Source: an uncultured Acidimicrobiia bacterium (GTDB lineage: Bacteria > Actinomycetota > Acidimicrobiia > Spongiisociales > ZC4RG35). From it: DNA of 64,000 nucleotides. A program made the translations under genes and the position numbers. The notes below the pieces were generated by a model. It had not been told where the DNA came from. It saw only the letters and a list, made by a program, of their open reading frames with translations, and ran no database searches. Positions 9,781-50,684 of the stretch are shown here, in pieces (the first letter of the stretch is position 1; every line of letters starts with the position of its first letter). The stretch lies in assembly GCA_964195405.1 (NCBI GenBank), contig CAXMPK010000119.1, positions 13,075-77,074 on the forward strand, in the 5' to 3' direction.

Positions 9781-9912
9781 TGCGGGGGACGGTAATCCTG
9801 GCCAGGGAAGAAGACCTACCCAGATGGCTGTTTGCTCGAGGGTCGCTGCAGCCATACCTTGATCGGAGCAGTTCCCACCTGTCCTCGGATTATGTTTAGG
9901 TACCTAACGAGC

Positions 9913-11172: not shown

Positions 11173-11233
11173 GACCTCGAGCGTCTAACGCCTGGGCGGA
11201 ATCCCGACCCGTCGCACGCTCGACGTGTGAGGA

Positions 11234-19071: not shown

Positions 19072-20499
19072 GTGGTCGCAGTAAGAAGCTCCACGGGTCT
19101 CGTTGATGACTTAGATCGTCTCGCGCTGGCTTTGGAAAGCCTCGATCTGAGAACGGCTTCGATTCGCGGCAAGGAATCGGACTCCAAGAGGGATCAACTC
19201 GTCCGGACGATTCGATCGTATGTCGTTCCTCGCCTGAGCGATCCCACGACGCCGTTGTGTGTGGTTTTTACCGGGCCGACCGGTTCAGGTAAATCCACTC
19301 TGGTCAACAGCATTTCGGGGCACAAAGTATCCGAAACAGGTCCGGTAAGACCGACCACCACCGCACCAGTTGTGCTCGCCTCGCTAGCGAATCGGGATCG
19401 TCTCCAGAGGCTGGGGGGTGTCGAGTGCGAGGTAGTGGAAGGTGCCGCTCCAATACTCGACATGGTGGCTCTCGTCGATACGCCCGACATTGATTCCACT
19501 TCGACTGAGCATCGAGCAACAGCCGAAGCGTTGATAGACAGTGCGGACGTCGTTGTCTTCGTGACGTCCACGCTTCGTTATGCCGATCTGGTGCCGTGGG
19601 AGGTCCTCCGCCGAGCCGTGTCACGTGGAGCGCCGGTCATCAATGTGCTCAATCGCTACAGCAGTTCCTCGGCCGGGGCTTATGTCGACTTCAGAAGCTT
19701 GCTCTCCGCTGAAGGCTTGACCTCCGACGTTGTCCGGGTTCCCGAGCATCATCTTGATAGTGATGCTCATTCGGTCCCTTCTCTTGCAGTCAAGGAGCTG
19801 GCTCGGCGTCTTGTCGATGTCGCCCGTGATCGAAGGCGTTATCAACAGGAGGTCCTCGATCAGGTGTTGGCCTCATTGGTTGCTCAGAGTGAGGATTTGG
19901 TCGACAGTGTGAATGACGATCGACGTTGGCTGGGTGATCGTGAAGCAGAGCTGCGATTTGGTTTTGCCAACTCCGCAATCGATCTCGACCTCTCGGGCGT
20001 CGTCGACGACATCGTCTTTGGTTTCCCGAGTGGAGCCTCGGCCCGCCGTAAGAGACGCTGGCTGCGTCGTGCCCAGGTCGAGATGGTTGCGATCGATCGC
20101 ATCGTTGCCGCTGTCGATGCAGATATTCGCTCACGGGGTCTGAGTGATGGCGATCTTCGCGAGATGATCGCCGAAACCATTCCCCGCTGGCTCGGCTACA
20201 CCCGTCGTGTCGTCGAGGAGGCAGACGTTGTGTCCTCTGAGTTGGCGTGTTCGGTTCTTGTTTGTTCCGCCATTGGCCTACGGGATCCTCAGTTGGAAAT
20301 GTTCGTCCTCGGTGATGACTCAGATCGCCTCGTAGCCAGAGCCCGGCGCGAATTGGTCGACCGACTCCAAGTCATCTACACCCACTGTGGAGAGCGGTTG
20401 GTCGATCGACTGGAGACCGAGGCCGGTGAGCCCGATGCGGACGATCTCGCGGATCGAATGTCATTCGTCGTTGCGAGGTCGCATTTCGCCGATGCGTGA
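19072..20499 (+). CDS. dynamin-like / P-loop GTPase family protein (paralog 1)
   Basis: G1 GPTGSGKST, G2 RPTTT, G3-like LVDTPDID, G4-like NVLNRY. 475 aa with a helical C-terminal part. Confidence 0.6.
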   Translation: MVAVRSSTGLVDDLDRLALALESLDLRTASIRGKESDSKRDQLVRTIRSYVVPRLSDPTTPLCVVFTGPTGSGKSTLVNSISGHKVSETGPVRPTTTAPVVLASLANRDRLQRLGGVECEVVEGAAPILDMVALVDTPDIDSTSTEHRATAEALIDSADVVVFVTSTLRYADLVPWEVLRRAVSRGAPVINVLNRYSSSSAGAYVDFRSLLSAEGLTSDVVRVPEHHLDSDAHSVPSLAVKELARRLVDVARDRRRYQQEVLDQVLASLVAQSEDLVDSVNDDRRWLGDREAELRFGFANSAIDLDLSGVVDDIVFGFPSGASARRKRRWLRRAQVEMVAIDRIVAAVDADIRSRGLSDGDLREMIAETIPRWLGYTRRVVEEADVVSSELACSVLVCSAIGLRDPQLEMFVLGDDSDRLVARARRELVDRLQVIYTHCGERLVDRLETEAGEPDADDLADRMSFVVARSHFADA

Positions 20500-21718
20500 C
20501 GCGTTGGGCGAGATTCTCGACAAAACCGATATCGTCGTCGCTTCCTGTCGAAACGTCGTGGCCGATAAAGACCTCGAGAGTTTCGCTCGGGCTGCACGAA
20601 ACGTCAGAGCTCGGCTGAGTTTCCCCCCAGATCTGGTGGTGGCGGTCCTGGCCGGTGGGACCGGATCGGGCAAGTCCAGCATTTTCAACGTGATTGCAGG
20701 CGAGGAAGTATCAGACGTCGGGGGTGTCCGCCCCACAACCAGCACACCGCTGGCGATTGTTGCGCTCGATCGAGTTGGCGTCATGGATGGATTTCTCCGA
20801 GAGCTTGATATCGAGGTGCGTCCAGTGGCCGGCGTCCCGACGTGGTTGGTCTTGATCGATCTACCCGATATCGACAGCGTCGAGATGGATCATCGGCTTC
20901 AGGTCGAGGCGTTACTCCCGCGGGTCGACGTCATTGTCTGGGTCTCAGATCCTGAGAAGTACCGAGATGCCGTGTTTCATGACCGGTTTGTCAAGCCGCT
21001 CGCCGCTTACGCCTCCCGGATGCAGTTCGTTCTCAACCAAGCAGATCGGATTCCATACGGCTCCGTCGATGAAGTCCTCGCAGATTTCACCAGAGCACTC
21101 CGTGAGGACGGAATAGATGAGCCGCACCCCATCGCGACTGTTGCTGATCCGCCGTCGGGTCCGCCAGAAGGCATTGAGGTTCTGATTGCTGCGTTGGAAA
21201 CGATGACCGACGCCCCGCAGGGCGTGTATTCGAAACTGGTGATCGATCTGGAACGTGCTGTTGCCGTCTTGGACACAGTTGTTGGAGGTGGGGGAGTCAA
21301 TTTCGCCCATCGCTTCGGTGAAGTGATCAGCGACGCCGCGGAGATGGTGGTTGATGATCAGGGCGATGCTGCCGTATCAGCCTTGACTCGTTTCGTTGAG
21401 GGTCTGGCGACCGAGGCCGGAGGGCCGGTCGGTGATGAGATTCGCCTGGTGGCTGTGGCTATTCCCGGTGCGGTGGTGAGCGCCAGCGAATCGTTGACCA
21501 AGGCAATGGTCGAGCACCGCAAGGCACTTCCAAGGATCAGATGGAGCGAGAAGGGCGACACGATGGAACGGGAGCCCAAACTGGCCATGGCCAGCGAGCA
21601 GCTGGTCGAGACGCTGGGGCCGCCACTACGCAAGACGCTCTCCCGACGTGCCGATGCCACTGCGGCGCTCGCCGATTTGTCGCTGTCGTTGACGTCTAGA
21701 GCCGCGGGTCACCGGTAA
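20492..21718 (+). CDS. dynamin-like / P-loop GTPase family protein (paralog 2)
   Basis: G1 GGTGSGKSS, G2 RPTTS, G3-like LIDLPDID, G4 LNQAD. The start at MRDALGE overlaps the upstream stop as ATGCGTGA. Confidence 0.6.
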   Translation: MRDALGEILDKTDIVVASCRNVVADKDLESFARAARNVRARLSFPPDLVVAVLAGGTGSGKSSIFNVIAGEEVSDVGGVRPTTSTPLAIVALDRVGVMDGFLRELDIEVRPVAGVPTWLVLIDLPDIDSVEMDHRLQVEALLPRVDVIVWVSDPEKYRDAVFHDRFVKPLAAYASRMQFVLNQADRIPYGSVDEVLADFTRALREDGIDEPHPIATVADPPSGPPEGIEVLIAALETMTDAPQGVYSKLVIDLERAVAVLDTVVGGGGVNFAHRFGEVISDAAEMVVDDQGDAAVSALTRFVEGLATEAGGPVGDEIRLVAVAIPGAVVSASESLTKAMVEHRKALPRIRWSEKGDTMEREPKLAMASEQLVETLGPPLRKTLSRRADATAALADLSLSLTSRAAGHR

Positions 21719-33301: not shown

Positions 33302-33754
33302 CTATGACGTGACGGAAGGGTTGGTCCCGATGACCAGCCACGTCCCGAATATGACCAATGCGATTCCGCCGAGACGTCTGGCGTCGAGAGGGTGAGCGGT
33401 CCCAAAAAGGCCGAAGTTGTCGATCAATGCCCCAATTGCGATCGACGCCCCCGTAAACAATGTGAGACCAGCCCCCAAGCCGAGATTGGAGATGGTTATG
33501 CCCAACGAAGCCACAATCACGAGCCCCATCAGACCCGCAGTGAGAGCCCACCACGGCACCTCACGAAGATCGGAGAGTCGTGCTCCACCGAACGCAAGCA
33601 TCATCAGCGCAATTGCCAGTCCACCACCGCCGTATGTCACAAACGTGGAGACCAGGGTTCCTGCTTTTGCTTCCATGATTCCCACAAAGGAACCCTGGAG
33701 CGCACCGGCCAGGCCGCCGACAACGCCTATTAAGACAACGAGGATCATGCTCAT
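33302..33754 (-). CDS. DMT-superfamily small membrane protein (DUF606-like)
   Basis: 150 aa with four TM helices and Gly-rich segments. Confidence 0.45.
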   Translation of the reverse strand: MSMILVVLIGVVGGLAGALQGSFVGIMEAKAGTLVSTFVTYGGGGLAIALMMLAFGGARLSDLREVPWWALTAGLMGLVIVASLGITISNLGLGAGLTLFTGASIAIGALIDNFGLFGTAHPLDARRLGGIALVIFGTWLVIGTNPSVTS

Positions 33755-34905
33755 GTTCGATCATGGTGGTCGGCCAGCTTCTCGTAGTCGCGGATTGTTC
33801 GGTCGAGATACCGGACCGCGGTGTCGTAACCCTGAAGGGCCTGATTGGTGGTGTAGGCGAGAACCCGCATCAGCCACAGTCGAAACGCCAACGCCTCCCA
33901 TGCCGGGTCGCCCAACCGAAACTCGTTGTGGAGGACAGCCAGGGTCTCGCCCCACGTGGACGCATCCATGAAATCGAAATGGGGTGCCTGGTGATTCCGG
34001 AGAACTTCAACCGCAAGAGGCTCCGGCAAGCTTTCTGCAAGTTTCTGCTCACCGGGTTGCCACGCCGCGTTGAGCAACGTGATGGTTGGGTTGACATCGT
34101 AAGCCACGGTGTTCTTGAGATCATCGGGAACCGGGGCGGGGGGATCGGCGGCAAATTCAGTCTCACCGTTCGGGCTTTCTTTCCCGCGAAGACTGATCAC
34201 CGCATCCAGGCATTCAATTGCCATGGCCCTGATCTCGTCGAGAGTCCCGTAGAGGGCATGACGCTTGCCCTCAGCAACGTTGTGTTCATAAACCGGCAGA
34301 CCGAGTGTTGTGGTGGCGTGGGTGATCATGGTGTCAACACCCCAGTCAGAGCGCGCCTGCACCGAAGAGTCCGAGGCGAGAGCGGCGATCGCCTCCCCGG
34401 TCAAAAGCATCTCGCCACCGAGCGGCTGGCCCAATCGGGGAAGGACAGTGCCGGGAAAGAGCATGGCCAGGGATGGCCTTGTGATCATCCAAGTGATCAT
34501 TGCGTCCGTCGACGCCCGAGGGAACCTATGGCGTACAACGCCATAACCCCGATCTACCGCCGTCTCGGCTCCGTCTATCCAGTTGTCATCGAAGTTGGTG
34601 ATGTCAGCGTCGTAGAAGTGGACCCTGTCGAACCCACGCTCCGCAGCCCGCCGAATCGCGGTGTTCATCCCGTCCCCTTTGCCACTGCGAAAGACTCCGA
34701 TTCTCTCCTGGGCAAAGACCTCGATCGGTGTGGATTCGCCAGTCGCGATCTCACCCGAGATAGATGAGACCTCATTCATCTCAGGTCCGGCGGTGGCGGC
34801 AACCGCCCACACCTCGTCGACGCGACGGTGACGGGCCGCAGTCGTGAGGTTGGCGGCGATGACACTCAAGTCCTCCTGCTTGAAGGGAAAAACGATCAGG
34901 CTCAT
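33751..34905 (-). CDS. GT-A glycosyltransferase, probable mannosylglycerate synthase (GT78-like)
   Basis: MSLIVFPFK, GKGDGMNTA, HFYDADIT (DxD), RHRFPRASTDAMITWMITR, QPLGGE and RSDWGVDT match my recollection of Rhodothermus marinus mannosylglycerate synthase. The start is trimmed to MSLIVF. Confidence 0.5.
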   Translation of the reverse strand: MSLIVFPFKQEDLSVIAANLTTAARHRRVDEVWAVAATAGPEMNEVSSISGEIATGESTPIEVFAQERIGVFRSGKGDGMNTAIRRAAERGFDRVHFYDADITNFDDNWIDGAETAVDRGYGVVRHRFPRASTDAMITWMITRPSLAMLFPGTVLPRLGQPLGGEMLLTGEAIAALASDSSVQARSDWGVDTMITHATTTLGLPVYEHNVAEGKRHALYGTLDEIRAMAIECLDAVISLRGKESPNGETEFAADPPAPVPDDLKNTVAYDVNPTITLLNAAWQPGEQKLAESLPEPLAVEVLRNHQAPHFDFMDASTWGETLAVLHNEFRLGDPAWEALAFRLWLMRVLAYTTNQALQGYDTAVRYLDRTIRDYEKLADHHDRT

Positions 34906-34964
34906 GGAAATGTCCGGGATGGGGGGGCGGAATCTGTCACAACCGGCGTCTACTCTCGTGGCTG

Positions 34965-36641
34965 ATGGAAGAAATGGTCGGAAGGGTCCTCGGGACCAAA
35001 GACGCAACACCGCTCGAGTTTTGGGTTGGTGTGAGTGAAGGCGAGTTCATTCAACTCGACGATGTCGTCGCCCTGGAGCGTGTGTTGCCAACCGGTGAGG
35101 TGGTCAGGATGTACGGGACCGTGGGTCAGGTGATCGCACGTCATGAGGGGGCGCGCTTCGATTCCGATGTCTTTCTGATCGAAGACGGGATCCTCCCCGC
35201 TGAGGTGTCCGAGGCAGCCCAGGTGACCGCCACCAGATTCGAGCCCGAGGTGTTTGTGCCGCCGCGTCCCGGTCAAGCGGTACGCATCGCGGAAGGCGAA
35301 GAGAGGGAGCGTGCCCTTTTCTTCGACCAAATGGATAAGCGGTTCCCGGTTGGGATCACCAGGAACGGCGATCCACTTTGGGTCAACTTCGAGTTCATCA
35401 ACGGTGAGCGAGGGGCTCATGTCAACATTTCTGGCATCTCGGGTGTGGCAACCAAGACGAGCTACGCAACCTTCCTTCTTCATTCCCTTTTCACATCTGG
35501 AGTGCTGGGGACAGCAGTGGTCAACACCAAGGCGCTGATCTTCAACGTCAAGGGTGAGGATTTGCTTCATCTCGACCGGGTCAACACTCGACTAGATGAC
35601 GAACAGCGACGGCGTTATGCCGACTTGGGTTTGCCTTCTACTCCTTTCGAGTCGGTGGGCACATTTGCGCCGCCCCGGATCGATGATCCCAGAGCCACGG
35701 CGGATGTCGCCTCGAGATCGGATGTCACCTCGTTCTTCTGGGGTGTCCATGAGTTCTGTATTGACGACTTGCTGCCCTTCCTATTTGCCGACGCCGAGGA
35801 CGACCGGGCCCAATACACAACGGTGGTCTACAACGTGATGGCCCAATTGCGATTGGCGGAGGCGACTGAGACCGGGGCAGCACACATCGATGGGGTCAAG
35901 GTGCGGACGTTTCGCGAGCTAGCCGATCTCATCACCGAGCGGGTGCAATCTGACGACGGATCGATTCGACACCGCTGGGCCGGCCCGGCGATAGGGATTG
36001 GAACCATCAATGCCTTTGTCCGCCGTCTCCAGGCCTCGGTGAGACATGTGGGACGGCTTGTCCGGTCCGACATCGCCGACGCCGATCGGCATCGAATCGA
36101 TCTCGGCCGCAATCAGGTCACTGTCGTCGACCTCCACAATCTCAACGACCGTGCCAAGCGCTTCGTGGTGGGGATCACCCTGAAACGTGCCTTCGACGAG
36201 AAGGAGCGCGCCGGTCAGTCGGATGAGTTGCTCTTGGTGGTGCTTGACGAACTCAACAAATACGCGCCACGTGAGGGGACGAGCCCGATCAAGGAGGTTC
36301 TTCTCGATGTTGCTGAGCGCGGTCGGTCACTTGGTGTGATTCTGATTGGTGCTCAACAGACCGCATCAGAGGTCGAGCGGCGGATCATCGCCAACTCATC
36401 GATCCGGGTGGTCGGGCGTCTCGATTCGGCAGAGGCTGCTCGCGAGGAATACGGGTTTCTACCGGGGGTCCATCGGCAACGAGCGACCATCGTCAAGCCC
36501 GGCACGATGATCCTCAGTCAGCCCCAACTACCTGTTCCACTTGTGCTCGAATTCCCCTTCCCGGCCTGGGCGACAAGGGCGTCGGAAGCTGTAATCCCGC
36601 CGGACAACACCGGTTCGGAGGATCCTTTCGACGATCTCTAG
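34965..36641 (+). CDS. HerA/FtsK-superfamily ATPase (HerA-like: N-terminal HAS-barrel plus ATPase)
   Basis: The N-terminal beta-rich segment resembles the HAS-barrel of HerA. It is followed by a deviant P-loop GISGVATKTS, Walker B VVLDELNKY, and GAQQ. Confidence 0.5.
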   Translation: MEEMVGRVLGTKDATPLEFWVGVSEGEFIQLDDVVALERVLPTGEVVRMYGTVGQVIARHEGARFDSDVFLIEDGILPAEVSEAAQVTATRFEPEVFVPPRPGQAVRIAEGEERERALFFDQMDKRFPVGITRNGDPLWVNFEFINGERGAHVNISGISGVATKTSYATFLLHSLFTSGVLGTAVVNTKALIFNVKGEDLLHLDRVNTRLDDEQRRRYADLGLPSTPFESVGTFAPPRIDDPRATADVASRSDVTSFFWGVHEFCIDDLLPFLFADAEDDRAQYTTVVYNVMAQLRLAEATETGAAHIDGVKVRTFRELADLITERVQSDDGSIRHRWAGPAIGIGTINAFVRRLQASVRHVGRLVRSDIADADRHRIDLGRNQVTVVDLHNLNDRAKRFVVGITLKRAFDEKERAGQSDELLLVVLDELNKYAPREGTSPIKEVLLDVAERGRSLGVILIGAQQTASEVERRIIANSSIRVVGRLDSAEAAREEYGFLPGVHRQRATIVKPGTMILSQPQLPVPLVLEFPFPAWATRASEAVIPPDNTGSEDPFDDL

Positions 36642-36708
36642 GGCAAGTACCTATGAGAACGGACCGTCTTCCACAAATCTGTCTTACCCACGATTTACGA
36701 TCTGGGCG

Positions 36709-37839
36709 ATGGCAGTGAAGATCCTTCACACATCCGACTGGCATGTCGGCAGGAGAATTCGGGGTAGGGATAGATCCGAGGAGCATCGCGCCGTCCTCGC
36801 CGAGATCGCAGGCCTGGCCCGTGAAAACGATGTCGATCTGACCGTTGTGTCCGGTGACACCTTTGACACGTCTTCACCGACACCGATTGCCGAGCAGATC
36901 GTTTGGAGTGCCCTTCTCGAGCTGGCCGAGGTGGCTCCTGTGGCAGTAGTCGCCGGCAATCATGACAACCAGGCCCGACTCGATGCGGTCGCCCCGCTGC
37001 TCGCTATGGGAGGCATCACGATGGTAGGGGCTGCGAGGGGGCCCGACGATGGTGGAGTGGTGTCCATGGATGCTCTAGGTGTGAAGCTGGCCCTGTTGCC
37101 TTTTGTCTCGCAGCGAGCGATGGTCAAGGTCGAGGAGATCATGGGATCGGATCCCGATCAGCACGCCGGGGTCTACGAGCAACGGCTTCGTCGGATCATT
37201 GATGCACTTACCTCCGGGATGACCTCGGATACGGTCAACATCGTTGTCAGTCATCTCACGGTTTACGGAGGTCTGGTTGGAGGGGGTGAGAGACAGGCCC
37301 ATATCTTTGGATACGCGATACCGGCTTCGATTTTTCCCGGACATCTTTCGTACGTGGCACTTGGTCATTTGCACCGCCAGCAGAAGATGCCCCACTCAGG
37401 TGCCGTCTGGTACTCGGGGTCGCCGCTGCAGCTCGATTTTGGCGAGGTGGCGGACAGCAAAGGTGCCTTGCTCGTCGAGGCCACACCGGGTCTGCCGTCA
37501 AAGGTGACCAGTCTCCCGCTGCAGTCTGGAACCAGGCTGGCGACCGCCAGGGGGACACTCGAAGAGATTCTTGGACGGGCCGACGATCTCGCCGATGCCT
37601 ACGTGAGAGTTGAGCTCACCGAGAAGGCCCGTGTCGGGTTGGCCGATGAGGTGAGAGAAGCCATTCCGGGCGCAGTCGAGGTGCTCCTCGACAATCCGAG
37701 CCCGGCAAAGAAGAAAACTGTGTCTCGACAGAGTCTCCAGCCACTTGAGGCCTTCCACCGCTACCTCGAAGAAAAGGGTGGTGATGACAAGGACGTAGAA
37801 GCCTTGTTTGCCGAGCTACTGGATGAGGCCGTCGCATGA
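36709..37839 (+). CDS. sbcD: DNA repair exonuclease SbcD (Mre11-type)
   Basis: Phosphoesterase motifs ILHTSDWHVG, GDTFD, GNHD and GHLH. Confidence 0.85.
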   Translation: MAVKILHTSDWHVGRRIRGRDRSEEHRAVLAEIAGLARENDVDLTVVSGDTFDTSSPTPIAEQIVWSALLELAEVAPVAVVAGNHDNQARLDAVAPLLAMGGITMVGAARGPDDGGVVSMDALGVKLALLPFVSQRAMVKVEEIMGSDPDQHAGVYEQRLRRIIDALTSGMTSDTVNIVVSHLTVYGGLVGGGERQAHIFGYAIPASIFPGHLSYVALGHLHRQQKMPHSGAVWYSGSPLQLDFGEVADSKGALLVEATPGLPSKVTSLPLQSGTRLATARGTLEEILGRADDLADAYVRVELTEKARVGLADEVREAIPGAVEVLLDNPSPAKKKTVSRQSLQPLEAFHRYLEEKGGDDKDVEALFAELLDEAVA

Positions 37840-37869
37840 AGACAACGTGGCCATCTTTGTGATGGCGTC

Positions 37870-40230
37870 ATGAGACCACTTCGTATCCGAGCCGAAGGTT
37901 TCTCGGCATATCGGACACCGGTAGAAGTCGATCTCGACGGTGTCGACTTCTTCTCGTTGAGCGGAGCAACCGGTTCGGGCAAGTCGAGCCTCATCGATGC
38001 CATGGTCTTTGCCCTTTATGGGCGGGTTCCCCGACTTGGGGGCAGCACCGTCGCTCCCGCGATCAGCGCCGGTGTCGACCGAGCTCGAGTCGCCTTCGAT
38101 TTCGAGATCGACGGTTCCGTGTATACCGCTGTTCGTCTTGTCGAAAGGACCAAGACCGGGGGAGCCAGTGTCAAAGAGGCGAGACTTCAAAAGGGCCAGT
38201 CAGTCTTGGCCGATGGTGCCGACGACGTAACCGTGGCAGTTGAAGGCCTTCTCAAGCTCCGTTTCGAAGACTTCACCAGGACGGTGGTCTTACCGCAGGG
38301 TGACTTCGCCCAGTTTCTCACCGCCACCAAGGCGGAACGCCAGTCGTTGTTGCGAAGTTTGCTGGGACTCGACATGTACACGGCAGTTCGTGGGCTGGCC
38401 AAGACCCGCGCCGCGGTTGCCGGGGATCGCGCTGAGACCGCCCATGCTTCGCTTGAATCTCTGCAAATTCCTGATGATGAATCGGTGGTCTCCGCCGAAC
38501 GGCGGCTGACCGATCTCGAAACTCTGTCCACTGAAATCGTCGAGCGGGAGAAGAGGCTGTCCAGTCTCGACAAGAAGGTGGCGGATACGCGGGCCGAGGT
38601 TGATCGTCTCTCCGACGCGGCAACGCGATTGGAATCAATCTCACCGCCGGACCAACTCGAGAGACTCGACGGTCTTGCCAATGACGCTCGTGACGGTGTC
38701 GCCCTGGCGGAGAAATCCCTGGAGGAGGCGCGTACAGAGGTGCTCTCGCTCGAAACACGCCTCCGCGACCTGACATCACCTGCTCAAATCGCCACACATC
38801 GCATCAGCCATGAGAATCTTGGCGAACTGGAGGAGCGGATGGCCGCCCACAACCTCGAGCTGATCGAAGCCGAAGTGGAGGCTTTATCCGAGGAGTTCGA
38901 TGAAACGGTCGGGCGACTCCAGGAGACCCGGGATTTGCTGGCGTCGGCTCGATTCGCCCATGCTGCCCATGCTCTTGTGTCCACACTTGTTGTCGGCGAG
39001 CCCTGTCCGGTATGTGACCACGAGGTCATCGACATACCGAGCTACTCCACTCCCACCGAATTGGAACAGCTCGAGGCGGATGATGTATCGCATTTGCAGG
39101 CTCGTGAAGCGGCCCGATTGAATCTGGACACTGTGAAGGGTCGCCTCACCAGTGTCCGGGCAACCCTCAGCGAACAGACAGAACAACTAGGTCGACTCCA
39201 AGAAGCTTTGACTGACATTCCAAACATTGAGGAGTTGACTGAGCTCGAGAGCCGGTACGACGAGATTGTCGTGGTCCTCGAGGATCGTCGGGCTGTTCAG
39301 GTGGTCCGCGACGGTGAGCTCGAGACCGCCAGGCAAAGCCTTGATGGCCTCGCTGACGCCGTCCGGCTTGTCGGCAAACAGTTGACCGCAGCTCAATTAG
39401 AAGTTGCCGATTTGAAGCCACCAGTGTCCGATGCGGATGATGTGGTGGTTCGCTGGAAAGACCTGATCAGTTGGCGTGACGAGGCTCGTGCCGCCATCGA
39501 TGCAGAGACTCTGCTCGCGGTGGACTCTGTTGCGTCTGCCAATGACAGGGCGGCCGACGCCAGACATGAGTTGACCTCGACACTCCGCGATGCAGGCGTG
39601 AAGGATGAGGAGCCCCATTCGGCCCAGGTGGCGACTGAGTTGGAGAAGGCCCGCCAGCTTGTTGCTGACTTCAAGAAGACGTTGTCCGCGGTCAACAAGC
39701 TTCAGGTGGAAGTTGAGGAGGCTTCCTCAAAGGCCACCGTGGCCGAAGCTCTCGCCGGCCATCTGCGGGCGAACGGTTTTGAGCGATGGCTGATGGCTGG
39801 CGCACTCAGTGATTTGGTTGGCGGTGCCAACGGGTTACTCGGGGAGTTGTCATCTGGCGGCTATTCCCTCCATTCGGATGACGTCGGTTCGTTCTCCATC
39901 GTCGACCATCGCAATGCCGATGAGTTGAGGTCCGTTTCGACACTTTCCGGCGGAGAGACGTTCTTGGTTTCCTTGGCCCTGGCGTTGTCTCTCGCAGAGA
40001 CTCTGGCGGCTGCCGGCGGTGCACGTCTCGACACCATCATTCTCGACGAAGGCTTTGGAACGCTGGACACCGAGTCGCTGGACACGGTCGCATCTGTGCT
40101 CGAGGAACTCGCCGGCGACGGGCTCATGGTGGGAGTCATCACACACGTCAAGGAGCTGGCAGCGCGGGCGCCGACCCGGTTTGAGGTCACACGAGAGCCG
40201 ACAGGCTCGGTGGTGGAGAAGGTCTCATGA
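37870..40230 (+). CDS. sbcC: DNA repair ATPase SbcC (Rad50-type)
   Basis: Walker A GATGSGKSS, central coiled coil with a CPVC zinc hook, signature LSGGE, Walker B IILDEGFGTLD. Confidence 0.85.
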   Translation: MRPLRIRAEGFSAYRTPVEVDLDGVDFFSLSGATGSGKSSLIDAMVFALYGRVPRLGGSTVAPAISAGVDRARVAFDFEIDGSVYTAVRLVERTKTGGASVKEARLQKGQSVLADGADDVTVAVEGLLKLRFEDFTRTVVLPQGDFAQFLTATKAERQSLLRSLLGLDMYTAVRGLAKTRAAVAGDRAETAHASLESLQIPDDESVVSAERRLTDLETLSTEIVEREKRLSSLDKKVADTRAEVDRLSDAATRLESISPPDQLERLDGLANDARDGVALAEKSLEEARTEVLSLETRLRDLTSPAQIATHRISHENLGELEERMAAHNLELIEAEVEALSEEFDETVGRLQETRDLLASARFAHAAHALVSTLVVGEPCPVCDHEVIDIPSYSTPTELEQLEADDVSHLQAREAARLNLDTVKGRLTSVRATLSEQTEQLGRLQEALTDIPNIEELTELESRYDEIVVVLEDRRAVQVVRDGELETARQSLDGLADAVRLVGKQLTAAQLEVADLKPPVSDADDVVVRWKDLISWRDEARAAIDAETLLAVDSVASANDRAADARHELTSTLRDAGVKDEEPHSAQVATELEKARQLVADFKKTLSAVNKLQVEVEEASSKATVAEALAGHLRANGFERWLMAGALSDLVGGANGLLGELSSGGYSLHSDDVGSFSIVDHRNADELRSVSTLSGGETFLVSLALALSLAETLAAAGGARLDTIILDEGFGTLDTESLDTVASVLEELAGDGLMVGVITHVKELAARAPTRFEVTREPTGSVVEKVS

Positions 40231-41138
40231 AGTACACCGTTGAGGCCTGGGATTCGGACTACGGCGCACCTACAGACCCTGAGCTGGACGATGCCACCCA
40301 GTCAGTGGACGCTTCTGTTGAGGTGCCGGTCGATCAATGGCGGCCTCTGCTCCCTGAGGTCGATCCGGTCGACGACATCCTCTTTGTCGACGGAGTCCGG
40401 CGGGTCGACGCAACCCTGTGGATCGACCAGCCACCCGATTTTCCTGCCTTCGCCCTGGCAGCCACATACGCCGCCGGTGCAGTCCGCTGCAATGGGACGG
40501 CACAGGTCGAGGTAGCGGATGTCGGGAGAGGTCTCTTCACTTCCGCGCCGGCCGACGACATCGAGACGAGTGTTGGCACCTATGAGATCAAGGCCACCAA
40601 AGGAACAACATCCGAGGAGCTCTGGCTTGGTATACAGCAGCGGATGGGCGATCTCGAGGCACACGTAGCGCACAAGGCCGGTGGTGGTGAGCTTCTAGTT
40701 GTCGACGGGCCGCTTTCCCATGCCCGTGATCTCGAAAATGCGGTTGGCTACATCAAGACTCAGAAGGTGCAATATCTACCGCTCGAATTGCGGTCGGTTC
40801 TGACTTCACTGCCGGCTGGATATCGCACGCCACTGTTTTTGACGACCACGTCATGGAGTCGTTATTCGTGGTACTTGCGGCTCGCCAATCATGCGGGTCC
40901 GGCGGGTGGGCTGGTGCGTTGTGAAATCGATGCGAACAAATCGGTCGCCGACGCTGCCAGAGTGGCCACGCGTGTCAGTGCGACGTTGCCCCGTTTTGCA
41001 TCTGCAAGTCACAAGGATCCCCGGGCGCCGCAGAATCTCTATCCGATAGGTGGTCTGGAACGTGAGCTCCGACGACGGCTCGGTGACAAAGAACTGGCGG
41101 TTCGATCGTTGCGGAAGGCTTCAGCGGTCGCGGCGTGA
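40227..41138 (+). CDS. hypothetical protein, candidate NurA-like nuclease
   Basis: The ATG overlaps the sbcC stop as ATGA. An acidic N-terminal segment is followed by FVDGVRR and VVDGPLS motifs consistent with an RNase-H-like NurA fold. The position matches nurA in archaeal herA-mre11-rad50-nurA operons. Confidence 0.35.
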   Translation: MKYTVEAWDSDYGAPTDPELDDATQSVDASVEVPVDQWRPLLPEVDPVDDILFVDGVRRVDATLWIDQPPDFPAFALAATYAAGAVRCNGTAQVEVADVGRGLFTSAPADDIETSVGTYEIKATKGTTSEELWLGIQQRMGDLEAHVAHKAGGGELLVVDGPLSHARDLENAVGYIKTQKVQYLPLELRSVLTSLPAGYRTPLFLTTTSWSRYSWYLRLANHAGPAGGLVRCEIDANKSVADAARVATRVSATLPRFASASHKDPRAPQNLYPIGGLERELRRRLGDKELAVRSLRKASAVAA

Positions 41139-42026
41139 GGCCAGGAAGGCCCCAACAATCACCAAGCCGACACCTGCGATGGCCAGCGGCGCAACCACCT
41201 CGTCCCGGAAGACGACACCAAGGGTCAGCGCGACCACCGGGATCACATACGTGAGGAATGCCGACCGGGTAGCCCCAACGCTCCCCACAAGGGCACCCAT
41301 CATGTAGAAGGCGATACCGGTGCCTACTGCACCGAGTGCCAGCGTCGCTATGAATGCCGGCCAAGTGAAACTGGATTGGGTCAGGCCATAGATCCCGAAA
41401 GGGGTCACCAGGAGTGTCGCGCTTCCCAAGACGTGGGCCATGACCGGCAGCGAGCCATATTTCTGTGCCGCCGGCGTGACCATATTGAGAGCGATGGCAT
41501 AACAGACCGTTGCCACCAGGATGAGGGCTACGCCGAGGGTGGCGGTGGCCCCTGTCCCAGCCGATGGGAGAGCTATGGCCACGATCCCGGCAAACCCAAC
41601 GATCAGCCCCACGATTTGGAGTCTTGCGGGAAGGGCACGAAGCAAGATCGTCGCCAGGAGCGCAGTGAAGACCGGAGTGGCACCGTTGAGCATTCCCGCG
41701 ATTGCAGAGTCGATCCACTGCTGCGCGATTGGAAAGAGCGTGAAGGGGATCGCAACCCAGATCAGCCCGAGAAGCCGGAGTCTCGTCAGATCATCACGGT
41801 CGACGCGTGTCCGCCTGGCTTGGGGGAAGAGGGCGATCGTCACGGCTCCAAATCCAACTCGAAGCCAGGTGACCAAACCAGGGTGAAAGGCGTCGAGCCC
41901 AATCGCGATGAGAAGAAACGATGAGCCCCAGATCAGTGCCACGCCAAGGAACAGCCCCCAATCGAGCGCGGTAAAGGCATCGCGATTGGTGCCGTGGGAG
42001 GTGGTCAGGATATGAGTGTTTGCCAT
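41121..42026 (-). CDS. DMT family transporter (EamA/RhaT-like)
   Basis: Ten TM helices and two EamA-like repeats. Confidence 0.7.
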   Translation of the reverse strand: MANTHILTTSHGTNRDAFTALDWGLFLGVALIWGSSFLLIAIGLDAFHPGLVTWLRVGFGAVTIALFPQARRTRVDRDDLTRLRLLGLIWVAIPFTLFPIAQQWIDSAIAGMLNGATPVFTALLATILLRALPARLQIVGLIVGFAGIVAIALPSAGTGATATLGVALILVATVCYAIALNMVTPAAQKYGSLPVMAHVLGSATLLVTPFGIYGLTQSSFTWPAFIATLALGAVGTGIAFYMMGALVGSVGATRSAFLTYVIPVVALTLGVVFRDEVVAPLAIAGVGLVIVGAFLASRRDR

Positions 42027-44911: not shown

Positions 44912-44950
44912 TAAGATGACGACGTCATCGATAAGATGACGTGTCATCGA
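44912..44950. repeat. Tandem direct repeat of two units, each with a palindrome GATGAC(N1-2)GTCATC
   Basis: Seen directly: TAAGATGACGACGTCATCGA and TAAGATGACGTGTCATCGA side by side, immediately 5' of the glycine aptamer. Confidence 0.55.
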
Positions 44951-45088
44951 CACCGTCGGGAGAGCCTCGATAACGAGGCGCCGAAGGGGCAACACCTTCC
45001 CGGAATCTCTCAGGCATGTAGGACCGATCGGTCGAGGCTTCGCTGAAGGAAACGACAGCAGGGAAGGGCAATAGCTTGCTACGGAGAC
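44950..45088 (+). promoter_or_regulatory. glycine riboswitch (single clear aptamer) in the gcvP leader
   Basis: GGGAGAG ... P2 hairpin CCTCGATAACGAGG ... CGCCGAAGGGGCAA ... CTCAGGCA ... GGACCG matches the glycine aptamer consensus. It lies directly upstream of gcvP. Confidence 0.6.
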
Positions 45089-45092
45089 CTCG

Positions 45093-47912
45093 ATGCCCAA
45101 CCCGTTTGAGAAGTTCGCAGACCGCCACATCGGTCCCAGTCATTCGGATATTCAGAAGATGCTTGCCACCGTTGGCGTGGCGTCTTTGGACGACTTGGTT
45201 GCCGGGACAGTTCCGACCTCGATCTTGGATGAGACGCTCGAACTGCCCGAGGCGCTGACGGAAGTAGAGGTAGTTGGACGGCTTACCGAGTTAGCTGAAA
45301 AGAACACTGTCATTACGTCGCTCATAGGTCTCGGATACCACGACACGATCACCCCACCTGTCATCCAGCGCAAAGTGTTGGAGAACCCTGCTTGGTACAC
45401 CGCCTACACCCCTTATCAAGCTGAGATCAGCCAGGGTCGACTTGAGGCCTTGCTCAATTTCCAGACCATGGTCTCGGACCTCACGGGTCTCGACATCGCC
45501 AATTCGTCACTTCTCGATGAGCCGACCGCTGCCGCCGAGGGCATGGCCATGGCTCACCGTCTCCACCGTGGGAAAGAGAGAGTTTTCTACGTCCATCCCG
45601 ATGTCCACACACCAACCAAAGCGGTCCTCACCACCAGAGCCTCGGCTGTTGGGATCGAAGTTCGAGAGCTAGACGACCATGCCGACCCTTCACAAGCATT
45701 TGGCGTGTTACTTCAATACCCAGGGTCATCTGGTGCGATCAGCGACCACAGCTCTGTTATCGACGCCTTCAGTGGTGCAGGCGCTTTCGTCGTGGTGGCC
45801 ACCGATCTGCTCGCCCTCACCATGCTTGAGCCCCCGGGGGAGTGGGGCGCCGACATCGCTGTCGGATCGGCCCAACGTTTTGGGGTGCCGCTTGGCTATG
45901 GAGGGCCCCACGCCGGCTTTATCGCATGTCGGGAGAAGCATGTGCGCGCCCTCCCCGGTCGTCTCGTGGGTGCTGCTGAGGACACCGCGGGGAGGATGAG
46001 CTATCGGCTGGCTCTCCAGACCAGGGAACAGCACATCAGACGGGAGAAGGCGACCTCCAACGTGTGTACGGCCCAAGTCTTGTTGGCGATCATGGCCGGC
46101 TTCTATGCCTGCTGGCATGGACCCCAAGGCCTCAAAGCAATCGCGGGTGAAGTCCATCGACTCACATCAAGTCTCGCGGCAGGGATTGATTCTGCCGGAT
46201 ACAAGATGGTCTCCACCTGGTTCGACACGATCACTGTCAGGACGCCAGGAGCCGCAGATGAGATCGTCGCGCGAGCTCTCGAGGTGGGAGTGAACCTCGG
46301 TCTCGTCGACGATGACCATGTGCGTGTGGCACTTGACGAGAAGTCCGATGACGACTTGGTTGGGGTGGTTCTGGGGGTTTTCGGCGCCTCGATACCGGGT
46401 GAGCAACCTTCAGGAATCCCGGATAGGGCGATTCGCCGGACAGCATTCTTGACACACCCCGTCTTCAGTCTTCATCAGTCCGAAACCGAGATGCTGCGCT
46501 ACCTGCGAAGACTGTCCGACCGCGACCTCGCCCTAGATCGCAGCATGATTCCACTTGGCTCCTGCACGATGAAGCTCAACGCGACTACCGAGATGATCCC
46601 GGTCACATGGCCCGAGTTCGCAGGGATTCACCCCTATGCGCCGGTCAGTCAGGCAGCTGGATATTTGGAGCTGATCGAAGAACTGGGTGAATACCTGGCC
46701 CAAATAACCGGCTACGACACAGTCTCTCTCCAGCCCAACGCCGGATCACAGGGCGAGTTGTCAGGCTTGCTGGCGATCGCCGCGTATCACGAGTCCCGTG
46801 GTGAAGGTCATCGTGACGTTTGTCTCATTCCCGCGTCTGCGCACGGAACCAACGCTGCGTCTGCGGTCATGGCCGGTATGCGTGTTGTGGTTGTTGCGAC
46901 GGACGACCGCGGGAATGTCGATTTCGATGATCTAGAGGCCAAGGCATCGGAGCACGCTGACGCCCTTGCCGCCGCCATGGTCACCTACCCGTCCACGCAC
47001 GGAGTTTTTGAGGAGGGGATCAAGGCACTGACCGAAATGGTGCATTCCCACGGTGGCCAGGTTTATGTCGATGGGGCCAATCTCAACGCTCTCGTAGGAT
47101 TGGCGCGACCAGCCGAGTTCGGCGCTGACATCGGTCACCTCAATCTGCACAAGACGTTCACAATCCCGCATGGGGGAGGTGGTCCAGGTGTCGGCCCAGT
47201 AGGCGCAAAGTCCCATTTGGCGCCATTCTTGCCAAGCCACCCCTTGCTGGCGGCGGCAGGCCCCGATACCGGAATCGGACCAGTTTCCGGTGCGCCTTTT
47301 GGATCGGCCGGGATTCTCCCCATCCCCTATGCGTATATTCGCCTGATGGGCGCCGAAGGGCTGCGTCAGGCAACGAAAGTGGCGATTCTGTCGGCCAACT
47401 ACGTGGCCAGACGGCTCGATCCCTACTTTCCCGTTCTCTATACAGGGGCAGGCGGGCGTGTGGCCCATGAGTGCATCCTCGATTTGCAGCCACTCACCAG
47501 AGACACCGGTATCACTGCCGAAGACGTTGCCAAACGTTTGGCTGATTATGGATTCCACGCCCCGACGCTGTCGTTCCCGGTGGTGGGGACACTCATGGTT
47601 GAACCGACCGAGTCCGAGAGCCGGGCAGAGCTCGACCGTTTCTGTGATGCGATGATCGCGATCCGAGCCGAAGCCGATCGGGTGGGTTCGGGTGAGTGGC
47701 CTCGAGATGACAATCCGCTGTCAAACGCCCCGCATACTTCCGAGGACGTTGTTGCGGATGACTGGGCACGGCCCTATTCGAGAGAACAAGCTGCGTTTCC
47801 TGTCAGGATCCTTCGTTCCGACAAATACTGGCCCCCGGTTGGGCGTATCGACGGTGTGGGTGGGGATCGGAATCTCGTCTGTGCCTGTCCGCCTCTCGAT
47901 GCCTACCGCTGA
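45093..47912 (+). CDS. gcvP: glycine dehydrogenase (decarboxylating), glycine cleavage system P protein
   Basis: 939 aa single-chain P protein, with a PLP-lysine region around HLNLHKTF. Confidence 0.9.
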
Positions 47913-47982: not shown

Positions 47983-49587
47983 GTGAGATTCACCGGTCAA
48001 ATTCGGGTTCCCGATGTAGACCACCCGGGGGTTCCAGTCACCTTCGTTGTCGATGACAACCAGGCGGAGGTGATTCTGGAGGGTGACTCCCTTGGCAGGT
48101 GGTCGCTTTTTGACGTCCATGTGACCCGTCTTGTCTCCAGTGCGTTCCAGGTCGAGTTGGCCGACGAGGAAATCACATTCCTCGCCGACGAGCCCGTTGA
48201 CTTTGCCTACAACGGCGTCGAGCACATGGCTCAGGTATGGGCCCGGTATAAGACAATGACGGTCCCGCGCCGAGTGATTGCCGTCAAACGATCCCGAAAG
48301 GGAACCACACCATCGCGACTCCAGGAATTCCGCGAGGCGATGATCGAGAATCTCAGAGCTGAGGGTGGTGAGAGCTCGAGCCGGGGAGAGCCCTCGATGC
48401 TCCCCGGCGAATCCGTGGCGACAGCGGCGTCTCCATCAACACTAGACCCGCTGCTCGAGCCCGTTACGGAGTCGAACGAAGCCGAAGACGGTGCGGAAGC
48501 AGTCATTCCAATGGTCGCTGGTTCCAATGAGCTCGATCGAGCTTCGGCGAAGACGGAGCTGGAAGCAATCGAAAATGCTGAGGCCCAGCGAGCGAAAGCC
48601 ACGCTCATTGAGACCGAGCGAAGGGCCGAGGCCGATCGAATGGCGTCCGAGCGTGATGCACTCGCGGCTGAGCGTGTCCGCCTCGACGAACAGAAGCGGA
48701 GTCTGGAGGAGGCCCTTGCAGAAGCAGAACACCTAGAGAAGAAGCGTCTCGATGCGGCGCAAGTCGATATGGATCGGATCGAGAGTGAGAAGCGGGAGCT
48801 CGAGAAGCGTCATGAGGAGGAGCGTCTCAAGGCGGAGCAATTGGAAACCGAGCGACAGGCGCTTCAACAGCTTGAGGTCGATCGTGTCGAGCGCGAGCGC
48901 CAACAGGAAAAAGACCTCGCGGCGCGGCATTTGGAGGTCGAAGAGCTCGAAACCAAGAAACGGGCCGAAGCTGAGCGTCTCGAGAAGGAGCGTAAGGAGT
49001 TGGTGCGTCTCGATGCAGAGCGTGAAGAGACCGCTCGCATCGAAATGGAAAAGCTCGAGCTGGAGCGTCTCGAATTGGAGCGTCTCGAAAGTGAGAGGTT
49101 ACAACGCGAGCGGGACGAAGCCGATCGCGTCGAGAAGCAACGTCTCGCTGAAGAGAAGCAACGTCTTGCTGACGAAAAGCGGGAGGCAAAACGTCTGAAG
49201 AAGGAGAAGGAAGCGGCCGCGGCCATCGCGGCGGAGGCTGAAACCGAACCTGAAACCGATGCTGAGGAAGAACCGGGCGGACGTGTCGCTGAAGTGCTCG
49301 GAACGTCAGTTGCCGGCGACCTCCCCGATAATGCCAAGGAGTTGGTGGTCGATCTTGGAGCCTTCGAAGAGGTGGCCCCGATCGAGACACCGCAATCGGG
49401 TACCGACACCGAACCGGCAATGGCCGGAGTGACGGAGAAGGCCGGAATCATGGGTGCAGTCAAGGCTGCCTTCAGTCGCACCGGCAAGAACCATGTTCAC
49501 GAGTTCACAGAGGCCCCCGGTGGCATTGGCATGGTGCGATACATCTGCCGCGAATGTGGCTACGTCTCGATATCCAGCACAGATTGA
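47983..49587 (+). CDS. hypothetical coiled-coil protein: ~110-aa N-terminal globular domain, ~250-aa Glu/Arg/Leu-rich coiled coil, C-terminal HxH...CxxC element
   Basis: Periodic ERLELERLELERLESERLQRERDE-type repeats. C-terminal HVHEF...ICRECGY. No enzymatic motif was recognised. GTG start. Confidence 0.5.
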   Translation: MRFTGQIRVPDVDHPGVPVTFVVDDNQAEVILEGDSLGRWSLFDVHVTRLVSSAFQVELADEEITFLADEPVDFAYNGVEHMAQVWARYKTMTVPRRVIAVKRSRKGTTPSRLQEFREAMIENLRAEGGESSSRGEPSMLPGESVATAASPSTLDPLLEPVTESNEAEDGAEAVIPMVAGSNELDRASAKTELEAIENAEAQRAKATLIETERRAEADRMASERDALAAERVRLDEQKRSLEEALAEAEHLEKKRLDAAQVDMDRIESEKRELEKRHEEERLKAEQLETERQALQQLEVDRVERERQQEKDLAARHLEVEELETKKRAEAERLEKERKELVRLDAEREETARIEMEKLELERLELERLESERLQRERDEADRVEKQRLAEEKQRLADEKREAKRLKKEKEAAAAIAAEAETEPETDAEEEPGGRVAEVLGTSVAGDLPDNAKELVVDLGAFEEVAPIETPQSGTDTEPAMAGVTEKAGIMGAVKAAFSRTGKNHVHEFTEAPGGIGMVRYICRECGYVSISSTD

Positions 49588-49628: not shown

Positions 49629-50684
49629 ATGCCAATAGTCAGACCAGTCATTCTGTCCGGTGGTTCAGGAACACGTTTGTGGCCTCTCTCCACGCCCAGC
49701 CTTCCCAAACAGTTCGTCCATCTTCTCCCCGGTGGCACCCTCTTCACCCAAACGCTGGAGCGTCTCAGTGGTATAGAAGGCGTGGCACCGCCGGTGATTG
49801 TCACCGGGGCTGATTATGCCGATAGGGCGTCAGCCGCCGCCAAGGACATGGGCATGCCTGCTGAATTCATGATTGTGGAGCCGGCCGGCCGAAACACCGC
49901 ACCGGCGGCTTTGGCCGCGGCCTTTTCGGTTGCAGCTGATGAGATTCTCGTCATCCTTCCGGCCGACCACATCATCGAGGACATCATCGACTTCGGAGGG
50001 ACTGTCGAGTTGGCTGTTGATGAAGCTGAATCGGGATCCATCGTCACTTTTGGGATCACACCAACGGGCCCTGAAACGGGCTTCGGATACATCGAGATGG
50101 GTCGAGAATCGGGTCATGGGTATGTGGTCAACCGTTTCAAGGAAAAACCCGGCCCATCTGAGGCCATAGAACTTGTTGCCGATGGCCATCATATTTGGAA
50201 CTCAGGCATGTTTGTCGTTTCGGCTGGTCTTCTCATTGACGAGGCGCTGATCCACTGTCCGAAATTGGCGGAAGGGGTGCTGGCTTCATTGCAACCGTCG
50301 CAAGGCGGGATGGTGCACCTTGATGAAGGGTTCCGGTCGGTGGAGAGTATTTCACTCGATCACGCGATCATGGAGAAAACCGAGAAGGCGGTGGTTGTGC
50401 CGATTGACGTTGGGTGGAGCGACGTTGGGTCATACCAGACTCTTTGGGAGCTATCAGAAAAGGACAATGCCGGAAACTCGGTGACCGGTGACGTGGTGAT
50501 CCGCGATGTCTCCGGTTCGTTGATCCGGGCATCATCGCGAACGGTGGCCGTAGCCGGGTTGTCCGATGTGGTTGTGATCGAGACCGCAGATGCTGTGTTG
50601 GTTGTGCCCCGGGACCGCTCTCAGGACGTGAAGGATCTGGCAGCCGATGCTGGCGGCGACCGCTCTGCAGCACAATCGTCCTGA
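49629..50684 (+). CDS. mannose-1-phosphate guanylyltransferase (GDP-mannose pyrophosphorylase, no isomerase domain)
   Basis: N-terminal VILSGGSGTRLWPLS nucleotidyltransferase motif and a left-handed beta-helix C-terminus. Confidence 0.85.
   Translation: MPIVRPVILSGGSGTRLWPLSTPSLPKQFVHLLPGGTLFTQTLERLSGIEGVAPPVIVTGADYADRASAAAKDMGMPAEFMIVEPAGRNTAPAALAAAFSVAADEILVILPADHIIEDIIDFGGTVELAVDEAESGSIVTFGITPTGPETGFGYIEMGRESGHGYVVNRFKEKPGPSEAIELVADGHHIWNSGMFVVSAGLLIDEALIHCPKLAEGVLASLQPSQGGMVHLDEGFRSVESISLDHAIMEKTEKAVVVPIDVGWSDVGSYQTLWELSEKDNAGNSVTGDVVIRDVSGSLIRASSRTVAVAGLSDVVVIETADAVLVVPRDRSQDVKDLAADAGGDRSAAQSS

Follow-up and report, generated by a model that had tools for sequence, protein, structure and literature searches.

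Gene organisation of the locus

The DNA analysed here is a 64,000-nucleotide (nt) window of contig CAXMPK010000119.1, from an uncultured Acidimicrobiia bacterium, in which four plus-strand open reading frames (ORFs) adjoin at positions 34965-41138 and are predicted to form a herA-sbcD-sbcC-nurA gene cluster for the processing of DNA ends. Gene positions were taken from a six-frame ORF list, and all coordinates are those of the window unless another locus is named. The first gene, herA (ORF1, 34965-36641, + strand), would code for a bacterial-type HerA of 558 amino acids (aa), a hexameric DNA translocase/ATPase of the FtsK-HerA superfamily. It is followed by sbcD (ORF2, 36709-37839, +; 376 aa), whose predicted product is an Mre11-family nuclease subunit, and by sbcC (ORF3, 37870-40230, +; 786 aa), which likely codes for an ABC ATPase of the Rad50 family whose coiled coil is short. 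The last gene, nurA (ORF4, 40227-41138, +; 303 aa), would code for a bacterial-type NurA nuclease with an RNase H-like fold. The 67-nt herA/sbcD junction (36642-36708) is the sole loose joint of the cluster. Only 30 nt separate sbcD from sbcC, and the stop of sbcC and the start of nurA share 4 nt (40227-40230, +; CTCATGAAG), an ATGA overlap that may reflect translational coupling. An earlier, sequence-only reading of this DNA had reported the same order, the same two gaps and the same overlap, and the ORF coordinates agree with it exactly.

Upstream of the cluster, a 59-nt spacer (34906-34964) lies between herA and a divergent mannosylglycerate synthase gene and is presumed to hold the promoter of the cluster; a promoter scan did not find a sigma-70 consensus (0 promoters called). 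Terminator-like sites were below the chance level in the corresponding scan, with none above chance inside the cluster and none in the herA/sbcD junction. GC content is flat, at about 0.59-0.61, over the cluster region and the window alike. A scan of ORFs across the window turned up no genes of mobile elements, and outside the cluster the window codes for ordinary core metabolism.

The predicted HerA translocase

A phmmer search of the PDB matched the product of ORF1 to HerA of Deinococcus radiodurans (drHerA, 7f6d_B) with E=3.1e-146 and 491 bits, residues 3-541 aligning to residues 13-600 of 7f6d_B with the N-terminal HAS-barrel region included. The Walker A motif GISGVATKTS, an unusual form, is identical in drHerA, and K164/T165 correspond to drHerA K175/T176. 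Residues D428/E429 of Walker B align to drHerA D487/E488. The two pore arginines of drHerA, R495 and R552, have their equivalents in R436 and R493, and resection is lost when these drHerA residues are mutated (PMC9960219). The window protein is hence alike over its full length to the HerA of the solved D. radiodurans NurA-HerA complex (PDB 7F6D, 7WRW and 7WRX; PMC9960219), with Walker A, Walker B and the pore arginines in common and a chain of 558 as against 618 aa. We predict from this alignment that ORF1 is a clear bacterial HerA of the D. radiodurans type, in agreement with its earlier description as a HerA-like HAS-barrel ATPase.

ORF1 matched no Pfam family at E≤0.01 and nothing related to HerA even at E≤10, while NCBIfam and PADLOC gave weak, partial HerA matches. 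The sequence-only reading had named a failure against the Pfam HerA/FtsK models as grounds for giving up the HerA assignment. Given the match to 7f6d_B, we rejected the Pfam blank as an argument against HerA and regard that test as having returned a false negative. The blank reflects a gap in model coverage for the bacterial clade. The precomputed Pfam column was likewise empty ('-') for 120 of the 120 HerA homologues listed, and the bacterial HerA clade in its entirety, which comprises 504 clusters at 50% identity (E≤1e-30), appears to be invisible to Pfam-A. The clade missed in this way includes relatives of the solved D. radiodurans protein, and annotation pipelines label its members merely 'ATP-binding protein'.

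The predicted SbcD and SbcC subunits

ORF2 carries the Pfam domains Metallophos and SbcD_C and scored 161 bits against the NCBIfam model TIGR00619 (sbcd; cut-off 77.65). The PDB search ranked E. coli SbcD first (5e-30), ahead of Thermotoga Mre11 (1.5e-22) and Pyrococcus Mre11 (1e-9). Phosphoesterase motifs I to V were all located, namely DWH (10), GDTFD (49), GNHD (83), SHL (181) and GHLH (219), and ORF2 is accordingly predicted to be an intact SbcD.

In ORF3, the Pfam domains AAA_23, SMC_N and SbcC_Walker_B all scored above their cut-offs, and the best solved structure was E. coli SbcC (2e-37), followed by Thermotoga Rad50 (8e-27) and by archaeal Rad50 chains (6e-16 and weaker). The motifs comprise Walker A GATGSGKS (32), a CPVC zinc hook (379), LSGGE (692), Walker B ILDEGF (724) and the H-loop ITHV (757). 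The score of 257 bits against TIGR00618 (sbcc, NCBIfam) lies under the curated cut-off of 478.5, which we attribute to the coiled coil, shorter by about 260 residues than in E. coli SbcC; the head domains match the E. coli protein well in the PDB search. ORF3 is therefore best read as an SbcC that is short, at 786 aa, with a split ABC ATPase head and a CPVC hook. E. coli SbcCD (PDB 6S6V and others) thus provides the best solved-structure matches for both proteins, which have its nuclease and ABC-ATPase motifs and its CxxC hook and differ from it in the length of SbcC (786 versus 1048 aa) and its much shorter coiled coil. To our knowledge, sbcCD of E. coli is not linked to herA or nurA. The TIGR00619 and Pfam matches, the motifs and the PDB hits bear out the earlier naming of these two products as SbcD (Mre11) and SbcC (Rad50).

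The predicted NurA nuclease

The 303-aa product of ORF4, on which the sequence-only reading had been uncertain, scored 23.8 bits against the Pfam NurA model PF09376 (gathering cut-off 21; E=3.7e-5) and matched no NCBIfam family. Its PDB matches were D. radiodurans NurA (drNurA, 7f6d_H; E=2.1e-20) and Thermotoga TM1739 (1zup; E=3e-6), and close homologues bear the NCBI title 'DNA double-strand break repair nuclease NurA'. An AlphaFold2 model reached a predicted local distance difference test (pLDDT) value of 68 and a predicted template modelling (pTM) score of 0.71, a moderate confidence that we ascribe to the shallow alignment (≥80% identity). Foldseek placed bacterial NurA structures first, 7f6d_G (E=9e-13, TM-score 0.65) ahead of 1zup (E=7e-12), with TM-scores of 0.6-0.65, and after them returned TdpAB chains and PIWI domains of Argonaute, both as weak matches. 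Despite the moderate confidence of the model, its predicted fold matches bacterial NurA unambiguously.

When 19 diverse homologues, some with as little as 20% identity, are aligned, residues D55, E144, D160, K177 and R266 do not vary. Three of them, D55, K177 and R266, align to drNurA D53, K201 and R309, and mutants of these drNurA residues lose nuclease activity (PMC9960219). W8 of ORF4 is plausibly the equivalent of drNurA W8, proposed to stack on a DNA base (PMC9960219), although the PDB alignment begins at query residue 32 and so leaves out the N-terminus. With the equivalents of D53, K201 and R309 shared, the same fold ranking first and a chain of 303 as against 369 aa in D. radiodurans, ORF4 is predicted to be a NurA nuclease of the bacterial type. 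The PF09376 match, the PDB match and the structural comparison thus settle in favour of NurA what had been proposed with a question mark.

Conservation of the cluster in related Actinomycetota

A scan of one genome per species, with HerA as a single-protein query, returned at least 561 regions coding for close relatives of HerA. The best 80 (HerA 65-96% identity) were analysed, their gene content being determined by tblastn with the four window proteins. Almost all belong to Acidimicrobiia, Nitriliruptorales or unclassified Actinomycetota metagenome-assembled genomes, and the nearest HerA relative, at 96% identity, comes from an uncultured Acidimicrobiia bin. All four genes are tightly packed in the window order in 47 of these 80 loci, and a further 13 keep that order with an insert of 0.47-3.8 kb at the herA/sbcD junction only. 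Twelve loci run into a contig end, and what they contain agrees with the same arrangement, and in the remaining 8 sbcD is not in the available flank, which in 6 of them extends less than 3 kb downstream. Sixty of the 62 related genomes that are informative on this point thereby retain the order herA-sbcD-sbcC-nurA, and the adjacency of the four genes is not due to chance.

Two loci with a full 8-kb flank, L037 and L044, have no sbcD, sbcC or nurA downstream of herA or elsewhere at the locus; their partner genes may lie elsewhere or have been lost. The herA genes of these loci (L037 8001-9668; L044 6222-7880) each code for a protein 73% identical to the window HerA, and that of L037 has a patatin-like gene and a gene for an ABC ATPase as its flanking neighbours.

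Sequence identity falls in parallel for all four proteins over these loci, from 96 to 65% for HerA, 89 to 42% for SbcD, 78 to 31% for SbcC and 94 to 40% for NurA. Judged from the tblastn ends, the start-stop overlap of sbcC and nurA recurs in closer relatives (L001, L003, L005, L009-L011, L014, L017, L019 and L022). The herA/sbcD junction is the place where insertions are found. In L041 a DsbA/thioredoxin-like gene and a DUF952 gene (9708-12369, - strand) split herA from sbcD-sbcC-nurA, and equivalent inserts of 2-4 kb at this junction occur in a sub-clade (L036, L038, L040, L046 and L055).

The surroundings of the cluster are also conserved. Flanking genes are kept in 20-46 of the 80 loci, with GSDH-like and EamA genes upstream and EamA, PNPox-like, gpsA and ychF genes downstream; gcvP comes after them in the window and in three related loci. 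Because these flanks are syntenic across the class, the cluster sits in a stable housekeeping region.

Distribution in other bacteria

To look beyond close relatives, we used representatives of clusters at 50% identity, 504 of which match HerA at E≤1e-30, and examined the gene context of nine distant ones. The order nurA-herA-sbcD-sbcC was found in candidate division WS2/Psychracetigena and in Dehalococcoidia/Chloroflexota, where an extra SMC-like gene is added. In this Dehalococcoidia-type cluster (L084-L086) the additional gene (13598-14776, +) is a fifth co-directional one that starts 8 nt after sbcC; its 392-aa product has SMC_N, AAA_15 and AAA_23 domains and is possibly an extra ABC/SMC-like partner. 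One further distant lineage has a HerA gene followed by Metallophos and SbcC genes, a looser version occurs in another, and in a Euzebya-like genome a 4-kb insert separates herA from sbcD-sbcC. Four distant representatives carry a HerA gene without sbcD, sbcC or nurA partners nearby.

A tblastn search of a plasmid collection recovered the window order herA-sbcD-sbcC-nurA in a chromosome-sized record of Nonomuraea gerenzanensis and on the 451-kb linear plasmid NZ_CP134205.1 of Streptomyces sp. BB1-1-1 (L096), and the order nurA-herA-sbcD-sbcC on a conjugative Sphaerospermopsis (cyanobacterial) plasmid. A phage collection gave distant, partial HerA matches only. Across these genomes, the order with nurA last looks characteristic of Actinomycetota and that with nurA first of other phyla.

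A published precedent is Oceanithermus profundus, in which sbcD and sbcC lie downstream of nurA-hepA(herA), a layout read as an archaeal-like architecture for double-strand-break repair (Blesa et al. 2017, PMC5448004). There too, a bacterial HerA/NurA pair is encoded with bacterial SbcD and SbcC. The two clusters differ in that nurA comes first in O. profundus, whereas in the window it comes last and is probably translationally coupled to sbcC, and in lineage, Oceanithermus belonging to Deinococcota and the window to Actinomycetota. The sequence-only reading had considered the linkage exceptional for a bacterium. This view is not sustained, as the linkage is found in at least 60 related Actinomycetota genomes, in Nonomuraea, on a Streptomyces plasmid, in other phyla and in O. 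profundus. The cluster is not a new kind of system and belongs to a recognised type of DNA-break-processing gene cluster. In the literature searched, the scope of which left out Iyer 2004 and Constantinesco 2004, we found no description of the actinobacterial cluster or of its archaeal-like order.

Proposed role in the processing of DNA ends

We consider it probable that these genes form a bacterial cluster for the end processing of double-strand breaks, built of bacterial-type proteins, in which SbcCD most likely prepares the ends and HerA-NurA resects them. SbcC, as a Rad50-like ATPase that bears a zinc hook, and SbcD, as an Mre11-like nuclease, would recognise DNA ends and cut off hairpins or blocked termini. 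A hexamer of HerA, with a NurA dimer as its cap, would thread the end and pull duplex DNA through its pore with ATP; NurA would digest the 5' strand and so expose a 3' single-stranded tail for RecA to use. The identities of the four proteins, their intact catalytic and motor residues, the tight packing of the genes and the conserved order across Actinomycetota carry this proposal. From them we infer that SbcCD and HerA-NurA cooperate physically, that all four genes undergo co-transcription and that they serve homologous recombination in vivo. The conserved adjacency supports, if only indirectly, the predicted docking of a NurA dimer on the HAS-barrel face of HerA.

The closest biochemical parallel comes from Deinococcus, where nurA and herA form a two-gene operon, whereas in the window sbcD and sbcC stand between them. 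The Deinococcus sbcCD genes are encoded away from nurA-herA. In vitro, the D. radiodurans NurA-HerA complex translocates on double-stranded DNA and resects the 5' strand (PMC9960219). Whether SbcCD acts together with HerA-NurA in bacteria was a question left open in 2015 (PMC4663267). The occurrence of such linkage in dozens of Actinomycetota and in Chloroflexota, WS2, Cyanobacteria and Oceanithermus now provides strong comparative evidence for their cooperation, and the survey supplies culturable hosts, Nonomuraea gerenzanensis and Streptomyces sp. BB1-1-1.

Several observations weigh against this proposal. When nurA-herA was deleted, D. radiodurans became about 10-fold more resistant to UV and mitomycin C (PMC9960219); since the mutant was more resistant and not sensitised, the role of bacterial HerA-NurA in repair in vivo is unsettled. 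No experiment is known to link SbcCD with HerA-NurA in any bacterium. About half of the sampled distant HerA representatives are, like those of Deinococcus and Thermus, not beside sbcCD, so that the herA-sbcCD linkage is not obligatory. Nor is a single four-gene transcript guaranteed, since 13 relatives have herA/sbcD inserts and the one examined (L041) carries genes on the opposite strand. Some copies of the cluster are plasmid-borne, the Streptomyces copy lying beside TIGR02680, TIGR02678 and DUF2397 genes, and the NurA model of ORF4 is of moderate confidence only (pLDDT 68).

A more ambitious version of the proposal, which we hold to be possible but doubtful, is that herA-sbcD-sbcC-nurA would be the main end-resection machine of Acidimicrobiia and many Actinomycetota, a single assembly equivalent to the archaeal system that perhaps replaces RecBCD, AddAB or AdnAB. 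If so, the archaea-like order would reflect convergent selection for the co-translation and stoichiometry of an MR-HerA-NurA super-complex, and culturable carriers such as Nonomuraea and Streptomyces would offer a tractable bacterial model of a pathway studied mostly in hyperthermophilic archaea.

Possible role in defence

Alternatively, the cluster could act mainly against foreign DNA, either by degrading linear phage or plasmid DNA in the manner of RecBCD or as a dedicated HerA-nuclease defence module. We judge this unlikely. Partial PADLOC matches did arise for ORF1 (HerA defence models and mad8) and for SbcC (LmuB and mad3), but those of ORF1 cover the C-terminal ATPase core only (residues ~370-490, and up to ~526) at 15-38 bits, compared with 491 bits for the full-length match to the repair-type drHerA. 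In the fold comparison of the NurA model TdpAB chains rank next behind bacterial NurA, and archaeal HerA-NurA has been speculated to destroy extrachromosomal DNA (Blackwood et al., PMC3326311). No methyltransferase, sensor or toxin gene, however, stands alongside the window cluster, whose neighbours are SbcCD, NurA and housekeeping genes. A HerA-containing PADLOC defence system was rejected as a candidate, with neither a full-length match nor a partner effector (Sir2, DUF4297 or the like) found.

The plasmid-borne copies are a further argument for defence, one being carried by the conjugative cyanobacterial plasmid and another by the Streptomyces linear plasmid. In the latter (L096, NZ_CP134205.1; 1-7319 and 7884-15453), herA-sbcD-sbcC-nurA is found beside TIGR02680, TIGR02678, DUF2397 and ImmA/IrrE peptidase genes. 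We take the TIGR02680, TIGR02678 and DUF2397 genes to be Wadjet/JetABC-like. This neighbourhood is defence-island-like, in contrast to the housekeeping context of the window. The window locus lies in a region syntenic across the class and not in a variable island, and almost all of the related genomes sampled have the cluster, unlike defence systems, which are patchy. For the window cluster, end processing at double-strand breaks remains the reading that we prefer.

Bacterial or archaeal affinity

In the archaea Sulfolobus and Pyrococcus the exact order is herA-mre11-rad50-nurA. The four window genes are adjacent in this same archaeal order and fill the same four roles. The listing of the Sulfolobus 'mre11 operon' genes in that order (PMC4351679) supports the match noted by the sequence-only reading. 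In archaea the four genes are essential and are transcribed together, and the proteins that they encode act jointly in 5' end resection (PMC2288612, PMC3326311, PMC4351679). The window organism, by comparison, is not an archaeon of the hyperthermophile type.

That reading had gone on to suggest an archaeal-type machine or a horizontally acquired unit; acquisition from archaea would account for the identical order. Earlier authors have indeed held bacterial HerA to be of archaeal origin (PMC5448004). The proteins themselves point elsewhere. Among the PDB matches of ORF1 and ORF4 at E≤10, none is labelled as an archaeal HerA or NurA structure; they comprise, for ORF1, HerA chains of bacterial or defence type and, for ORF4, NurA chains of bacteria. 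Archaeal HerA equivalog models of NCBIfam gave ORF1 12-14 bits. In the same collection, archaeal Mre11 models gave ORF2 at most 40 bits versus 161 for bacterial sbcd, and archaeal Rad50 models gave ORF3 at most 93 bits versus 257 for sbcc, in line with the closeness of SbcD and SbcC to E. coli SbcCD. Since the best matches of HerA, NurA, SbcD and SbcC are all bacterial and the archaeal scores are far lower, the cluster is built of bacterial-type components, orthologues whose HerA and NurA are barely or not detected by archaeal models and structures.

The gene order tells the same way. The closest HerA relatives outside Actinomycetota have nurA first which, together with the four bacterial-type proteins, suggests that the likeness to the archaeal order arose as an independent arrangement of bacterial genes. 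This coincidence is most simply explained, from the sequences compared, by independent rearrangement and not by recent transfer from archaea. With the GC content uniform and the flanks syntenic across the class as well, we regard the gain of an archaeal herA-mre11-rad50-nurA operon by horizontal transfer as highly improbable, and the suggestion of an archaeal-type machine or acquired unit is not upheld. Any ancient transfer of HerA-NurA into bacteria would long predate the cluster.

Least credible of all is an ordinary sbcCD pair flanked by two unrelated genes with no functional four-gene unit; Pfam does not recognise ORF1 and the NurA score of ORF4 is barely over the cut-off, but the matches to solved HerA (E=3e-146) and solved NurA (E=2e-20, and by fold) and the conserved cluster, whose genes are kept together in 60 of the 62 informative genomes and are linked in several other phyla, refute it.

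Neighbouring genes and other features of the window

The gene divergent from herA (33751-34905, -) matches the Pfam domains MGS_GT and MGS_C with E=1e-84 and is predicted to code for mannosylglycerate synthase. As the MGS_GT match begins at residue 37 of a long GTG ORF, the probable start is the ATG at 34905. A mannosylglycerate synthase gene is found beside herA in only 14 of the 80 related loci (32-52% identity) and is thus a variable neighbour. Another gene (49629-50684, +), 15 kb from it, codes for a nucleotidyl transferase with a beta-helix domain of the ManC/GMP type, and the presence of both genes in the window suggests synthesis of the compatible solute mannosylglycerate. On the other side of the cluster, a convergent EamA transporter gene (41121-42026, -) overlaps the 3' end of nurA by 18 nt.

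Further downstream, a glycine riboswitch aptamer (44947-45036, +; Rfam RF00504, 56.9 bits versus a gathering score of 32) lies directly 5' of gcvP (45093-47912), the gene for the glycine cleavage P-protein, an ordinary and expected arrangement. Directly 3' of gcvP is an ORF of 534 aa (47983-49587, +) without a Pfam match at E≤1e-5. Elsewhere in the window, two adjacent ORFs (19072-20499 and 20387-21718, +) have one Dynamin_N GTPase domain apiece, which suggests a tandem pair of bacterial dynamin-like proteins at 19072-21718.

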